DNA of 64,000 bases from Salinispira sp. (GTDB taxonomy: Bacteria > Spirochaetota > Spirochaetia > DSM-27196 > Salinispiraceae): contig OZ271918.1 in assembly GCA_965602015.1 (NCBI GenBank), positions 640,001-704,000 of the forward strand. The letters run 5' to 3'. Of the stretch, positions 4,912-23,890 are shown in pieces; position 1 is the stretch's first letter; each line of letters starts with the position of its first letter. The notes under the pieces are model-generated. The model worked only from the letters and a program-made list of their open reading frames with translations, made no database searches and was not told where the DNA came from. The translations under genes and the position numbers were made by a program.

Positions 4912-4930
4912 ATCAGCTGTTTTCGGGGCA
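4912..4930. repeat. Solo copy of the GCCCC(C/G)AAAACAGCTGAT terminal repeat, interrupted by the IS110 element
   Basis: ATCAGCTGTTTTCGGGGCA is identical to 23870-23888; the expected continuation CT is found at 6236-6237, after the IS. Confidence 0.85.
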
Positions 4931-4947
4931 TATCTGAAAGCGGTGCC

Positions 4948-5114
4948 CCCCCGCAAGAGTTTTCATTGTTCTATTACAAAAATTCTGCAAATCGGTTTTG
5001 TCCGAGTCATATCTCCGCCATCCACGTGGCATGAAAATGTCCTTCCAGGGGTGTCGCAATCACTTTGCACAGCCTCGTATTCGCGCTGTAGCCCCAAAAA
5101 CGCGCTTACCCCTG
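4948..5114 (-). ncRNA. Putative bridge RNA / seekRNA of the IS1111-type element (boundaries approximate)
   Basis: Non-coding region 3' of the transposase contains matches to the target (5091-5101, 5061-5066) and to the circle junction (5027-5036, 5007-5014); 7-bp closing stem 5046-5052/5108-5114 and inner hairpin 5069-5073/5085-5089. Confidence 0.7.
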
Positions 5115-6158
5115 TCTGGACAAACCCGCTAATGCAGGATCTTTGTAATGCTGTTCTTTCTGCAATATCCAAAATATTGCTTCTGCTAAGTGCCGTGCCA
5201 CGGCGATTATTGCAACCTTATGATTACGTTTAGTACGAACTCTCTTGTAGAGTTTTACCGTATGTCGGTTCGCCCAATTTCTTTGATTAAGACAGGTTAC
5301 ATTAGCTGCTTCAGTAAGTGCCCACTTCAAGTATCGATTACATGCTTTCGATGTTCGACCATAATGAGTTTTACCTCCGCTCGAGTGAACGCGCGGCGTT
5401 GTACCACAGTATGATGCAAAATGTTCAGCGGTCTTAAAGCGATGTATGTCTCCAATTTCATGCACAATGACTGCGCTGAGAATAAATCCGATCCCGGGAA
5501 TGGATTTCACCAACTTCATTTCAGCATTTTCATCAAACGCTTCATGCATTCGTTGTTCGCAGTCGGTGATAGATTGCTTAATAAACGCGAGATTATCGAG
5601 CTTGAGTTTCATCATGGTGCGGGTATGCTCGGGGAGTTTTGGCATTACCTTCTTCATGGCTTCTGTACCTGCTTTTCCGAACAGATCGCTCACATCATTG
5701 AATCGAAACCCATATTTCTCGAACCCGGCATGAATTTGGTTCTTTTCACGTATCAACTCCTGAACGAACTGCATCCGGGTTCGATAGAGTTCTCGTTTAT
5801 CACGCAATTCTCCTGGTGGAATCCACACAGTAGGCAGTGTGCCTGCTTTTTGAAGTTTATTGAGACCTTCAGCATCGAGTTTGTCAGTTTTGTTAAACAT
5901 GGCCATCATCAATTTTGACTTACCGGCATGTACCAGCAAGGGGTTCATGCCGGCCTCCTCAATCTCATCCACAATCCAGTACCAACTTCCGATCGTTTCA
6001 AGTGCGACTTCCTGTCCCGGCTCAAATTGTTGGAGAAAATCACGAATACACCCGTGAGAATGTTCTATGCGCTGTGAGGATTTCCTTCCATTTTCGTCCT
6101 CAATTGCAGCCACGGTATACCGTTTATGGCTGTCGAGGGATATAATAGTATTACTCAT
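5106..6158 (-). CDS. IS110 family transposase/recombinase
   Basis: DEDD RuvC-like motifs SLDSHK, ALETIG and KTDKLDA; IPGIG; C-terminal TPRVHSSGGK serine motif; GGAGGAGG RBS. Confidence 0.95.
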   Translation of the reverse strand: MSNTIISLDSHKRYTVAAIEDENGRKSSQRIEHSHGCIRDFLQQFEPGQEVALETIGSWYWIVDEIEEAGMNPLLVHAGKSKLMMAMFNKTDKLDAEGLNKLQKAGTLPTVWIPPGELRDKRELYRTRMQFVQELIREKNQIHAGFEKYGFRFNDVSDLFGKAGTEAMKKVMPKLPEHTRTMMKLKLDNLAFIKQSITDCEQRMHEAFDENAEMKLVKSIPGIGFILSAVIVHEIGDIHRFKTAEHFASYCGTTPRVHSSGGKTHYGRTSKACNRYLKWALTEAANVTCLNQRNWANRHTVKLYKRVRTKRNHKVAIIAVARHLAEAIFWILQKEQHYKDPALAGLSRQG

Positions 6159-6262
6159 TTGGTTGTCCTCCTCCGGTATTTAATATAGACCCTGACTGGC
6201 AGGATCTCGGGGGAGGCACCGCTTTCATACCATCACTCTAATAATGTACAAGGAGGGATTCT

Positions 6263-6370
6263 ATGAAAAAGAATCTGAAGTCTCTCATACGCAAAAAGCC
6301 TCAGGGCGACAAGAAGCAGGCTCAGTGCTGTGCCAAGGTTTCTCCCGTCGTTGCGGGCTGTCACGACTGA
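6263..6370 (+). CDS. Putative RiPP precursor peptide, 35 aa, MKKNLKSLIRKKPQGDKKQAQCCAKVSPVVAGCHD (not in the ORF track)
   Basis: AAGGAGG RBS at 6250-6256 and ATG at 6263; Lys-rich leader-like half and a core with 3 Cys; lies directly upstream of a radical SAM/SPASM gene. Confidence 0.75.
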   Translation: MKKNLKSLIRKKPQGDKKQAQCCAKVSPVVAGCHD

Positions 6371-6457: not shown

Positions 6458-7852
6458 ATGGCGGAAATTCTTTCGAAACACAACATTCTCACCCGGCTTC
6501 ATAACAAAGACGAATGGCTCCTGGTCAATCTTCTTCATCAGCAGGCGGACATTATTGAAGCTGATCTCGCAGATCAGATTCAAAATGGTGAAGTACTCAA
6601 CGCTGGTATCTCCGGCCCGGAGTACATCGAGTTAAAAGAGAAGGGGTATATAATTGATGATGCCCTCGAAGAGTCGAAATTCCGGCTTGCCTACGGAGAT
6701 TTTATACGCGCCAGGGACGAATCGGAAGTTCAGGTTTTCTACGTGCCTGGGTATTCCTGTAATTTTGCCTGCGGCTACTGCTATCAGGAAGGTTATGAGC
6801 ATGCCGCCCATCCGCAACAGGACGGAGTCATCGATGCCTTTTTTTCATATATCGATCGCAGCCTTGCAGGACGGTCCTGGTACCTGACGATTTTTGGCGG
6901 CGAACCTTTGCTGCCGGGGCCCAATCAGCGTCGAATTGTTGAAAAACTGATTAAAGGCTGTAACAGCAAGGGTGTATCCCTGGCTGTGGTGACCAACGGA
7001 TACTATTTAAAATCCTATATCGATCTGCTCTCTACCGCGGACATCAGAGAAATTCAGGTGACTCTTGATGGTGTGGGCGATGTGCATAACCGGCGCCGGC
7101 CGCTCAAAGCATCGGTCCACGGTGACCGTGATCCCTCGAGTTTCGAGGCGGTTGTGGCCGGTATTGATGCAGCCCTCGATGCGGGTTTTGTTGTAAATAT
7201 GCGCACGGTTCTGGACCGGGATAATCTTCCGGCTCTTCCCGATCTGGCAGATTTTGCTATCAGGAAGGGCTGGACGGGCAGGCGGAATTTCAAAACCCAG
7301 CTCGGACGGAATTACGAGCTTCATTCATGTCAGGCGAGTCAAAAACGCCTGTACAGTCGTCTCGAAATGTATTCCGACCTTTTCGATCTCATTTGTGAGC
7401 ATCCCCGGGTCCTGGAATTCCATGTTCCGGCGTACAGCATCTCTCGCTTCCTGTTTGAAAACGGCGAACTTCCCATGCCCCTGTTCGACAGTTGCCCAGG
7501 GACAAAAATCGAATGGGCCTTCGACTCAAGCGGGAAGGTGTATGCCTGCACCGCTACGGTGGGAAAGTCTGGGCAGGAACTGGGATCTTTTTATCCGCAA
7601 CAGAATCTGGACACCGATGCTGTGGAGCTGTGGGAGGATCGGGATGTCCTCTCCATAGATGAATGCCGCAGCTGTTCGCTCAACCTCGCCTGCGGGGGGG
7701 GGTGTGCGGCGATTGCCCTCAACCGCAACGGCGGGCTAAACACACCGGACTGCCGGCCGGTTGATGCCCTCATGTCCCTGGGGGTAAGCCTGTACGCCAG
7801 CCTGGACTTACCGACGAGGACTGAACTATCAGGAGGAAGTGATGGCGGGTAA
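6458..7852 (+). CDS. Radical SAM / SPASM domain protein, probable peptide maturase
   Basis: CNFACGYC (CxxxCxxC), FGGEPLL, VVTNGY and QVTLDG; SPASM Cys pattern SCPG...GKVYAC...CRSCSLNLACGGGC...PDC; ~90-aa N-terminal extension. Confidence 0.9.
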   Translation: MAEILSKHNILTRLHNKDEWLLVNLLHQQADIIEADLADQIQNGEVLNAGISGPEYIELKEKGYIIDDALEESKFRLAYGDFIRARDESEVQVFYVPGYSCNFACGYCYQEGYEHAAHPQQDGVIDAFFSYIDRSLAGRSWYLTIFGGEPLLPGPNQRRIVEKLIKGCNSKGVSLAVVTNGYYLKSYIDLLSTADIREIQVTLDGVGDVHNRRRPLKASVHGDRDPSSFEAVVAGIDAALDAGFVVNMRTVLDRDNLPALPDLADFAIRKGWTGRRNFKTQLGRNYELHSCQASQKRLYSRLEMYSDLFDLICEHPRVLEFHVPAYSISRFLFENGELPMPLFDSCPGTKIEWAFDSSGKVYACTATVGKSGQELGSFYPQQNLDTDAVELWEDRDVLSIDECRSCSLNLACGGGCAAIALNRNGGLNTPDCRPVDALMSLGVSLYASLDLPTRTELSGGSDGG

Positions 7853-12073: not shown

Positions 12074-13323
12074 AGTGCCCCAAAACAGCTGATCGAATCA
12101 ACATAACTCTTTTGCCAGTAGTCTTCTATGACACGATTACCGCTCATAGGAGATTACCATGGCATTTTACCCCCGATTCTGTCCGTACTCGGACTGCTCT
12201 CAGCATCATCGCGACAGAGAATCAAGCCGATGCTGGTTTGTCCGAAACGGCCACTATCACTGTCGCCGCCTCGGTTCTTCACAGCGCTATCGCTGTAAGC
12301 ATTGCCGTCGATACTTCTGCGAAAGCGCGTTTCACCTCGATTATCGCGCACATCATCGCCTCGATTACCGGCGCATCTTCTCTTCGATCAACTCGGCTTC
12401 CGGCATCCGCGACATTGCCCGGGAGTTTTATGTCACCGACAAGGTCATTCTCAATCGGCTGAGCCGATTGTCCCGTCAGGCAATCGCTGCCATGGCCCAG
12501 TTATTGAGCGATCATACAATCGATGAGGATATTGCCGTTGATGGGTTTGAAAGCTTTGTATATAGCCAATACTGGCCGAACAACTTCACCCTCGCGGTAG
12601 GTTCCGACAGCCAGGTTGTCTATGCGTGCGACTATGCGCAGATGCGGCGCAAAGGGCGGATGACCCCCGCACAAAAGCGCCGGCGCGATGAGCTCAATCG
12701 CCGGTATCCTATTGCAGGGGGACAAATTGCGCGATCTTTCCGTGATGTGATAAACACCATTCTTCCCAGGTGGAGGGCTTATTCATCGAAGAAGCCATGC
12801 TATCTCTTGAGCGATGAAAAACTCGAATACCGCCGTGAGCTGTTCGCTCACCGGGACTGGGCGGCGTTGGAAAATGCAGGGAAGGTACTCCATCACCGAA
12901 CCTCATCGAGGGTGGTCAGGACCACTGAGAACCCCCTGTTTCCGGTGAATTACCTGGATCGGGAGATACGAAAGGATCAATCCTGTCATGTCCGCCAGAG
13001 TGTGCAGTGGTCAAAATCGGTGAACAACAGCATGGAGCGGATGATGATTTACATCGCCTATCATAACCTGCTCAAGCCGTATCGGATAAACGGACGAAAC
13101 GATATCAGCCATGGTGAGGTTGCGGGGTTTGACCGAAAGCGGGTACTCACGTTGGCAAAAAGGATGTTTACACAGCGGGCCTTCGTTCATCATCTGGTGC
13201 TGGACATCAGCCAATGGAAGACCTGGCACCGGATCTGGAAGACACCGGTGAGTGCGCTAAAGATCGACCTACCCGATTATGCGGTGGCCTGAGGAGCGGG
13301 AAATCAGCTGTTTTGGGGGCACT
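12074..13323 (+). mobile_element. IS-like element with ~20-bp terminal inverted repeats enclosing an IS1-like transposase
   Basis: AGTGCCCCAAAACAGCTGAT (12074-12093) and ATCAGCTGTTTTGGGGGCACT (13303-13323) flank a single ORF; no clear target duplication. Confidence 0.8.
12159..13292 (+). CDS. IS1-like transposase (Zn ribbon + HTH + DDE-type core in one ORF)
   Basis: CPYSDC...QRYRCKHC zinc ribbon, GIRDIAREFYV HTH and acidic motifs VDGFE, LLSDEK and NYLDREIR; AGGAG RBS. Confidence 0.75.
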   Translation: MAFYPRFCPYSDCSQHHRDRESSRCWFVRNGHYHCRRLGSSQRYRCKHCRRYFCESAFHLDYRAHHRLDYRRIFSSINSASGIRDIAREFYVTDKVILNRLSRLSRQAIAAMAQLLSDHTIDEDIAVDGFESFVYSQYWPNNFTLAVGSDSQVVYACDYAQMRRKGRMTPAQKRRRDELNRRYPIAGGQIARSFRDVINTILPRWRAYSSKKPCYLLSDEKLEYRRELFAHRDWAALENAGKVLHHRTSSRVVRTTENPLFPVNYLDREIRKDQSCHVRQSVQWSKSVNNSMERMMIYIAYHNLLKPYRINGRNDISHGEVAGFDRKRVLTLAKRMFTQRAFVHHLVLDISQWKTWHRIWKTPVSALKIDLPDYAVA

Positions 13324-13324
13324 T

Positions 13325-14617
13325 TCAAATAACCCTCAAGCATCCCTTTTCCCGGGGGAAAACTGGTAGCACACTCAAATAGTCGAAAAAGCGTTTGATG
13401 AGGGTTTCGAAGTCTTTTCCTTTATCGGCTTGAATCATAAAAAACGCCTTCGATTCTATACCCGCACCGAATGGTCCGTGGATGACTTCCACATTTTCAC
13501 CGGTTTTATAGATTGAAAAGATGCTGTGAAGTAGTTCAAGCTTATCGTTGAAATTTCCGCTCTTTCTGTTTATCAGGTTAATTATATGCCGGTATTCATG
13601 GAGATATTCCTGATAGAGATAAGAAATTTTGGCATGATTTCCGCTTCGCAGGCCACGAATTATTTGCTGTGTCCGGTGCCGCTCGGTTCGGAAGAAATGG
13701 ATTAGAACGATGTCCTCATGGCTAAATCCTGAGAATGTCCCGGGATTCAACAAATCGTCATATTCCAGAGTGTGAATCCTCCTCAGCTCATCGTGAAGGT
13801 GAAGATAGGCTTCTTCGGTCCCCGGTCCTGAACTGAGGCTGTCAACGATATATTGGCGGCGGTCGAAAAAACCGCCGTTCTGTTCGATTCGTGAGACGCT
13901 GAAATCCGGAGTATTAGTACATATCTGGAGTCCGCCGTTCCAGATAATGGCGCCGCTGGCAAAATCGCCCTCTTCGCCAAAGTAAGATTCTTCGACTGAT
14001 TTTATCATAGCGGCAAGTTTATTGCCTTGGCCGGCCAGGGGATGCTCTGCGCGTGTTTCTGGCTGATCCGATAGGCAGTAAAGCATGAGCGCGGTGAATG
14101 ATGCCGAGGCATTTAATCCTCCCCCGGGAAGCAACTGTGAGTTGCAGTATGCATCAAATCCTCTAATGCTTATGTTATTTTGAAGCAGCTTTGCTGCTGC
14201 GCCACGGATTAGCGCTGATGAACTCGCGGCTTCACTTTCGACGGGTTCAAGTTCTGATATGTCGAGATGAAATGGATGTTCATACCCGTCGGAGTACAGC
14301 ACAACCTGCTGATCATCCCGGTGTCTGAGGATTAATAGGATGTCCGGATTAACCGCTGTTCCAAGGCTTAGACCTCCCCAGCTCTCCGCGTGGTTTCCCG
14401 CGTACATCAGTCTGCCCGGCGAGCTGTAGATGTAGACCTGATCACTCTCATTGATGTTTAAAAGTGAGCGGGCATTTTCACAGAGACTGTGGTATCGCAA
14501 CGGCAAATTGCCACGGTCAGCTTCGTCCAGGATTCCCGAATTCAGCCCCAAACTGGTTACCAGGCGGCTGGGGAAACCGGTGGACCCTACCAGTTGACGA
14601 ACGTCACTGAATTGCAT
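13325..14617 (-). CDS. Galactokinase-like GHMP kinase family protein (divergent)
   Basis: SPGRLMYAGNH and PGGGLNASAS resemble GalK motifs I and II; FGAG near the C-terminus; GGAGGA RBS favours ATG 14617. Confidence 0.7.
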   Translation of the reverse strand: MQFSDVRQLVGSTGFPSRLVTSLGLNSGILDEADRGNLPLRYHSLCENARSLLNINESDQVYIYSSPGRLMYAGNHAESWGGLSLGTAVNPDILLILRHRDDQQVVLYSDGYEHPFHLDISELEPVESEAASSSALIRGAAAKLLQNNISIRGFDAYCNSQLLPGGGLNASASFTALMLYCLSDQPETRAEHPLAGQGNKLAAMIKSVEESYFGEEGDFASGAIIWNGGLQICTNTPDFSVSRIEQNGGFFDRRQYIVDSLSSGPGTEEAYLHLHDELRRIHTLEYDDLLNPGTFSGFSHEDIVLIHFFRTERHRTQQIIRGLRSGNHAKISYLYQEYLHEYRHIINLINRKSGNFNDKLELLHSIFSIYKTGENVEVIHGPFGAGIESKAFFMIQADKGKDFETLIKRFFDYLSVLPVFPREKGCLRVI

Positions 14618-17900: not shown

Positions 17901-18047
17901 ACTGCCCCGAAAACAGCTGATTTTCCATCTGTAGATTATTGTGGTAGAAAGAGAAGGGTAAGTTTCTATAAGATTTGAGTAAAATATCAGCTATTTTTTT
18001 TCTGGTCAGGTAATTAGCGAATTTAAATCAGCTGTTTTGGGGGCACT
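17901..18047. mobile_element. MITE/REPIN-like unit, 147 bp
   Basis: ACTGCCCCGAAAACAGCTGATTT ... AAATCAGCTGTTTTGGGGGCACT; same termini as the 12074-13323 element; AT-rich non-coding interior. Confidence 0.85.
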
Positions 18048-23742: not shown

Positions 23743-23890
23743 ACTGCCCCGAAAACAGCTGATTTTGTGGCGGTAACTCCTTATGTGGTAAATTACTAAT
23801 CGGGTTCTTTCAATAGGGTTGGATTGATGACCGGCAAATCCTAATCAGTGAACGGTTTGGATGCTTTAAATCAGCTGTTTTCGGGGCACT
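23743..23890. mobile_element. MITE/REPIN-like unit, 148 bp
   Basis: ACTGCCCCGAAAACAGCTGATTT ... AAATCAGCTGTTTTCGGGGCACT, a perfect 21-bp inverted repeat; lies between divergent srkA and folB. Confidence 0.85.

Follow-up and report, generated by a model that had tools for sequence, protein, structure and literature searches.

An IS1111-type insertion sequence with a predicted guide RNA aimed at the CA that closes the ends of another transposon family

The question raised by this locus is whether the non-coding sequence downstream of an IS110-family recombinase gene encodes an RNA that directs the recombinase to its sites. The original prediction, made for positions 4948 to 5114 of the window (the whole 64,000-nucleotide stretch analysed here), had read a bridge/seekRNA with four guide-like segments, a and b matching the target repeat and c and d the junction of the circularized element. 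Our analysis indicates that the locus very probably holds an active IS1111-type insertion sequence directed to both target and junction by a guide RNA. What could be read from the sequence comprises the ends and the core, the number of copies, the catalytic residues, the target sites and the covariation across the family; the remainder was inferred from work on IS621 and ISEc11. The features are collected in Table 1.

Table 1. Features of the element, its predicted RNA and its target in the window
Feature	Position	Strand	Basis or remark
IS1111-type element, 1303 bp	4931..6233	-	flanked by two TG/CA core copies; same ends in all 10 copies
Left sub-terminal inverted repeat, 18 bp	6210..6227	-	sequence comparison of ends
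Right sub-terminal inverted repeat	4935..4952	-	17/18 match in this copy, 18/18 in most others
IS110-family recombinase, 350 aa	5106..6158	-	NF033542 + PF01548 + PF02371
Target: solo copy of 19-bp terminal repeat, final CA (4929-4930) = core	4912..4930	+	genome matches
Right half of target with the second copy of the CA core	6234..6239	+	sequence
Predicted bridge/seekRNA core, ~128 nt	4997..5124	-	RNAalifold, 43 sequences; ends predicted
Left target guide (segment a without structural G5101)	5091..5100	-	covaries with target -6..-1
Right target guide including core UG (segment b)	5061..5066	-	covaries with target +1..+5
Putative target-loop handshake AU	5059..5060	-	would pair with donor -1,-2 once strands are exchanged
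Left donor guide, core register (more likely register)	5032..5040	-	5/9 identical, 7/9 with wobble; family covariation
Donor-loop hairpin GCCA/UGGC	5017..5030	-	helix 5; contains 3' half of segment c
Right donor guide including core UG (segment d)	5008..5014	-	67/67 donor match at 5 positions
Putative donor-loop handshake AC	5006..5007	-	before exchange A would pair with donor T, afterwards C with target G
Autonomous owner of target repeat, ~1247 bp	12076..13321	+	12 copies, 96-100%; both ends empty here
377-aa IS1/IS1595-like putative transposase	12159-13292	+	nearest named Atlas cluster, 0.93

Ten copies of the element are present in the genome, nine of 1303 bp and one of 2294 bp that is interrupted by another IS. 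All ten start with ATGGTATG, preceded on the left by AG-TG, in which TG is the core, and all ten terminate in CAGATA, followed by the second TG core. Because the copies share these ends and the empty repeats read AG-TG-CCCC, the core was set as TG/CA and the span as 4931-6233. An ATG core was ruled out on the same reading of the empty repeats, together with the TG, 6 nt and repeat that the homologues have in common. The sub-terminal repeats lie 6 and 4 nt from the 2-bp core and 12 nt apart across the junction, the extensions becoming 7 and 3 nt when the core is counted with the left end and the mismatched outer pair with the repeat. The non-coding sequence amounts to 175 nt downstream of the stop codon versus 75 nt upstream of the start, and only the 2-bp core is repeated at insertions, with the same orientation and GGGG-CA-CT at 9/9 independent sites. 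Asymmetric sub-terminal repeats, a long downstream non-coding end, a fixed target and orientation and no ordinary target duplication characterize the IS1111 group, and all were found here.

The recombinase scored 227 bits with NF033542 (cut-off 140) and was also above the cut-offs of PF01548 and PF02371. In 44 aligned sequences D9, E54, D92 and D95 are invariant and S260 is conserved in at least 90%, and the NKTDxxD and ESG motifs of IS621 align with D92/D95 and S260, respectively, giving the DEDD RuvC-like domain and the Tnp domain with catalytic serine of the IS110 family. The alignment with IS621 covers the C-terminal part only (E about 1e-11), the nearest homologues are just ~46-56% identical, and the element sits on a long branch of a quick tree built from the homologues found here. 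The proteins of the ten genomic copies are 98-100% identical, contig depth on the element is ~9x that of the flank in two runs, and the spacer orthologous to the insertion locus in genome G001 measures 56 bp and carries neither the IS nor the repeat.

Some copies and neighbours deserve separate mention. At G000:C1:3399413-3402530 the IS and ~260 bp of host DNA are duplicated in tandem, with a joint between the IS right end and chromosomal TG, an arrangement that fits donor-only recombination. Another element interrupts one IS copy at G000:C1:1707042-1708353, whose first 100 codons are lost, and the same end sequence as in that interrupted copy interrupts one target repeat at G000:C1:2613101. 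In the window, a gene for a 35-aa Cys-containing peptide (6263-6370, + strand) lies 27 bp downstream of the IS and is followed by a radical SAM/SPASM protein gene (6458-7852, + strand; best profiles NF038107 and TIGR04463, both under cut-off); the pair is conserved in G001 and is likely a modified-peptide cluster. On the other side of the IS lies an arsenite-methyltransferase-like gene.

All the strings on which the prediction was built were found where it had placed them. Segment a (5101-5091) matches the target at 4919-4929 in 10 of 11 positions, the sole difference being a U opposite G, segment b (5066-5061) matches in 5 of 6 positions at this site and in 6 of 6 at 13320-13325, and segment d (5014-5007) is identical in 8/8 positions to the junction composed of the right end, TG and the first base of the left end. 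As a correction to the earlier reading, segment b runs on into a 2-nt handshake at 5060-5059. The prediction had noted that the shorter matches could each be due to chance. When the 164-nt region was dinucleotide-shuffled 20,000 times, the 4-nt invariant part of b recurred in 7,145 shuffles, segments a, c and d in 37, 50 and 47, respectively, and a, b and d in that order in none. The registers tested in this way were picked after the fact, so the homologue tests weigh more. The guide is mismatched or forms a wobble at position -5 at 9/9 sites, which we counted against the guide model. Pairing of the left guide with the first core base only, as in this element, was seen in eight other homologous guide sets. 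A BLAST search of the genome returned no stand-alone copies of the RNA.

A locus search with a single protein had returned no homologous loci, and an alignment-based search retrieved them. From 175 loci, 152 had a transposase match and enough flank and 113 fitted the end patterns, which force a TG core; the RNA anchors fitted 104 and then 101 of these, and the latter collapsed to 69 guide sets, of which 67 were left after removal of this element and of one set without a readable left guide. Over the 67 sets, matches between the left target guide and the target of its own element amounted to 4.73 of 7 positions versus 2.65 when permuted, and those of the right guide to 4.91 of 7 versus 2.72 (0/2000 permutations in both cases). 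The signal was confined to positions -6..-1 and +1..+5, with none at -7, and both target guides still gave 0/5000 when each target class was represented by one element (n=26). In 28 disjoint sister pairs, at the positions that differ in both DNA and RNA, the left guide favoured its own target over that of its sister by 48 to 4 and the right guide by 46 to 1; the pairs were chosen by eye from the quick tree, and the sign-test values overstate the case, since the positions contributed by one pair depend on each other. The guide-target covariation that the original prediction had named as a check was seen for both a and b, and a stood as a guide except for G5101, which belongs to a conserved 4-bp helix that the prediction had missed. 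Two of the five donor positions matched by the right donor guide throughout the family are variable. Covariation of target guides with both strands of the target and of donor guides with the predicted circle junction, the left one more weakly, is the pattern that defines a bridge/seekRNA.

As to what the homologues aim at, 33 of the 67 guide sets (loci L016-L175) are directed to GT-CA-TT sites, which we take to resemble REP-type palindromes. Some of the homologous targets resembled tRNA halves, a reading that was rejected: ARAGORN predicted no tRNA in 8 filled loci, nor any at the insertion points of the 113 rejoined sites, where its only call fell in a flank.

The structure predicted by RNAalifold from an alignment of 43 of the 68 RNA regions has five helices, namely a 5'-3' closing helix, a long stem, the 4-bp helix that includes G5101, a target-loop hairpin and a donor hairpin. 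The RNA core runs from the closing helix through the target loop to the donor multi-loop, and its 5' helices overlap the last six recombinase codons. Both stems of the original prediction (5114-5108/5052-5046 and 5089-5085/5073-5069) are present in the predicted fold. The target guides a and b share one internal loop, and a three-way multi-loop accommodates the donor guides. Pairing was observed in 91.6% of the cells versus 31-39% in slid-partner controls, with two-sided (compensatory) changes in 24/29 pairs; these counts lean towards structure, since the structure derives from the same alignment. The result is a conserved secondary structure with the guides in its loops. Folded as a single sequence, the RNA region shows no unusual stability (z -1.57). 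In the fold of minimum energy the two donor guides pair together, and opening them into the arrangement typical of the family costs ~10 kcal/mol.

Short matches, and an Rfam search of the RNA region without any match up to an E value of 1, are what one would also expect if the matches were accidental and the region untranscribed filler. That reading is strongly disfavoured by the ordered matches, which none of the 20,000 shuffles reproduced, by the covariation of guide and target within sister pairs and by the compensatory structure, and we regard it as hardly credible. The ends, the target sites, the covariation and the structure support the assignment of the recombinase to the RNA-guided IS110/IS1111 class, with TG/CA as its core and a family of repeats as its target.

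The left donor guide required more discussion. The original prediction had placed it in segment c (5036-5027), and the match itself was reproduced, with 9/10 identical positions to the complement of the left end and 10/10 with wobble. In this register, the donor loop would pair with donor positions -11..-2, 8 nt off the core, with the small hairpin opened and the pairing extended into the sub-terminal repeat. The match exceeds those of all 67 homologues (best 8/10), is rare by chance (50/20,000 shuffles, as above) and goes with a slight family excess of 5.00 versus 4.89 (19/2000 permutations). It consists, however, mostly of the family-invariant UCAU, which resembles the invariant end repeat; with one element per class the test gave 249/5000; and at 17 sister-pair positions at which the donor had changed, the RNA of the c register was unchanged at all 17. 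Furthermore, its GCCA is an arm of the donor hairpin (helix 5), which is paired in 99.4% of the cells and shows two-sided change in 4/4 pairs. Segment c is unsupported as left donor guide because the RNA is static where the donor changes and because GCCA lies in this hairpin, and we consider its register very unlikely to be the real one.

In the family the left donor guide corresponds to the segment whose final CA is aligned with the core, which makes 5040-5032 the more likely donor guide here, as judged from the alignment of the homologues. This core register matched at 4.61 of 8 positions versus 3.70 when permuted (0/2000) and was the best of 15 registers (shifts -7..+7; z 9.8, the others up to 4.7 in size), the register of c (-8) having been tested apart by permutation and sister pairs. 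In sister pairs the core register gave 6 versus 1, which was not significant. The match of this very element in the core register is weak and speaks for c: its identical positions are among the family's lowest (4/67 at or below 5), and its count with wobble equals the family median.

How the element would move can be proposed from these features and from the IS621 and ISEc11 work. It would form a circle whose junction consists of the right end, TG and the left end, and this junction would complete a sigma-70-like promoter, with the -35 in the right end and the -10 spanning the junction, that drives the recombinase and the RNA. When the ends are joined, a -10-like TATGAT lies 18 nt after a weak -35 (3/6), for a score of 8/12 versus 6/12 as inserted, and a score of at least 9/12 was reached by 64/68 elements joined versus 31/68 inserted. 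A promoter scan of the linear form gave 4 sites versus 1.9 expected, none of them directly upstream of the RNA. The circle joint was not found in the contigs of 4 runs from one sample, from which its absence does not follow, as contigs drop rare forms. Since the RNA overlaps the stop codon, it is probably processed from the recombinase transcript, after which the ~128-nt molecule would bind the recombinase. The target loop would then pair with both strands of TT(N)GGGG-CA-CT and the donor multi-loop with the junction, and serine-mediated strand exchange at the CA core would lead to insertion in a single orientation, just outside terminal repeats that stay intact.

The handshake concept, introduced for IS621 (PMC11208158, PMC13626964), suggests roles for two further dinucleotides. 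By analogy, the AU at 5060-5059 would pair with the donor once the strands have been exchanged. Of the two bases of AC at 5007-5006, the A would engage the donor before this step and the C would engage the target afterwards. One Watson-Crick pair before exchange and three after it would favour insertion. In the homologues, the first base of AU fits the donor in 67/67 and the second covaries (0.72 versus 0.48), and AC covaries with target -1,-2 (1.64 versus 1.36 of 2; 0/2000). Pre-exchange donor pairing of this handshake base is reported to have strongly lowered recombination by IS621 (PMC11208158); among 17 homologues whose target base is not T, however, 10 retain the A, and the present element has spread nonetheless.

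The target repeat, ATCAGCTGTTTT(C/G)GGGGCA, has 128 genome matches at up to 2 mismatches, 7 of which abut this IS. The ten right junctions fall 7 times at this main repeat (3 full-length elements, 3 short units and 1 solo copy), and the remaining 3 at the tip of a 110-bp sister-repeat unit, at a lone 12-nt match and at the tandem duplication. At 8/9 independent insertions the site is the terminal CA of a transposon-type end, and the repeat stays whole because this CA is the core. All 9 independent sites have CT directly after the core, and CT lies outside 7/7 used repeat ends versus 75/128 of all repeat matches (p 0.02). Empty GTTTT(N)GGGG-CA-CT sites lie inside the repeat in 65/65 cases and empty TT(N)GGGG-CA-CT sites in 66/73. 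One could suppose that target choice needs a feature of the host end beyond the guide, such as a palindrome, paired ends or a bound transposase, which would explain why insertions cluster at transposon-type ends in spite of the mismatch or wobble at guide position -5 and would have a precedent in the stem-loop requirement reported for ISPpu10 (10.64898/2026.03.19.712850). Site G000:331372, however, has merely 12 nt in common with the repeat and no second copy, the target in this window is a solo repeat, and the availability of sites explains the bias, because 66/73 empty sites are already in the repeat. We therefore consider such a requirement quite unlikely and retain selection by the guide.

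The sister end family, AACAAGCTT(N)GGGGCA, comprises G000:C1:2757300-2760735, 1709279-1709388 and ~12 more ends, with units of ~108 bp and an interrupted transposase (34% identity). Its end accounts for G000:1709279, which was rejected as an off-target site. A T variant of the sister ends matches the guide perfectly at -7..-1, yet its 3 sites are empty.

The owner of the main repeat is a TG...CA element, whose 377-aa protein has no Pfam match, reaches 34.8 bits with the IS1 profile NF033558 (cut-off 100) and has chiefly spirochaetal Atlas neighbours. The profile score under cut-off and the lack of target-site duplication keep the element at 12076-13321 apart from the IS1 family: no duplication of at least 3 bases was found at the 11 full-length pairs listed, and the family seems, from its flanks, to insert without target duplication. 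The flanks are often palindromic around AG|CT. Homologues (loci L177-L205) were found in 26/61 genomes searched, G000 included. The repeat ends also occur on ~29 units of 133-145 bp with divergent interiors and near-fixed length (e.g. 17903-18045 and 23745-23888), as 42-47-bp palindromes and as many solo copies, and by their layout these units, palindromes and solo ends may be termed MITE-like or REPIN-like. G001 has 63 repeat matches, and there an identical 19-bp end flanks an owner homologue of just 61% identity; G002, G003 and G005 gave no matches to the 19-bp repeat.

It is possible, though we think it rather unlikely, that the element is a dedicated parasite of another transposon's ends, its guide reprogrammed to the terminal CA of this undescribed TG...CA family. 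If so, the AG|CT site preference of the host family would provide the right-guide match, the element would recombine at the bond that the host transposase would cut, and the swapped outer flank would block or alter the movement of the host and its miniatures.

Our literature search found nothing on this element or its target family; subscription journals, ISfinder and supplements, which lay outside the search, may have it. The RNA-guided IS110/IS1111 class and its principle are already published (PMC11208160 and PMC11187229; see also 10.64898/2026.08.31.748434 and 10.64898/2026.08.14.744561), which tempers the interest of the locus. What the locus offers is a compact, recently active IS1111-type recombinase whose target, donor, guides and putative handshake bases are all legible in sequence. 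The clade to which it belongs counts at least 68 guide sets, has CA as its core and carries a small, predicted three-way RNA of ~128 nt, which makes it a ready resource for orthologue mining. An RNA-guided element that takes the tips of another transposon family's ends for landing extends the published principle and does not change it.

Judged by its sequence features, the element joins the seekRNA/bridge-RNA IS1111 group as a new member, and its target is new as well. It resembles ISEc11, ISKpn4, ISPst6 and ISPa11 (PMC11187229) in its sub-terminal repeats, the non-coding region downstream of the gene, the top-strand complement that precedes the bottom-strand match, the guide order, the single orientation, the fixed target and the junction promoter, predicted here; it differs in its target and in its repeats of 18 bp versus the usual 11-13, the comparison being one of published descriptions. 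The donor guides lie in a multi-loop, as in many IS1111 elements (PMC11208160). With IS621 and ISCro4 (PMC11208160, PMC11208158, PMC13626964) it shares the DEDD and serine active site, a 2-nt core and the guide order left target, right target, left donor, right donor, and with IS621 the handshake count of 1 pair before exchange and 3 after. Unlike in these two, the RNA is in the right end and overlaps the stop codon, the donor guides are in a three-way multi-loop, the core is CA and not CT, and the pre-exchange handshake pair adjoins the core.

IS4321 and IS5075 insert within a 38-bp repeat. They are IS1111 members aimed at the terminal repeats of the Tn21 family, as noted in PMC11208160 and PMC11187229, and so, like the present element, at the terminal inverted repeat of another transposon. 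Here, in contrast, the core is the terminal CA itself, which leaves the repeat whole, and the ends belong to an unclassified IS1/IS1595-like host family that also has miniature derivatives. The REP-targeting IS110 elements (IS621, ISPa11, ISPpu9, ISPpu10) likewise use, as described, an abundant intergenic repeat as a low-cost landing site, whereas the repeat used here is not a described REP but a transposon end common to a 12-copy autonomous element.
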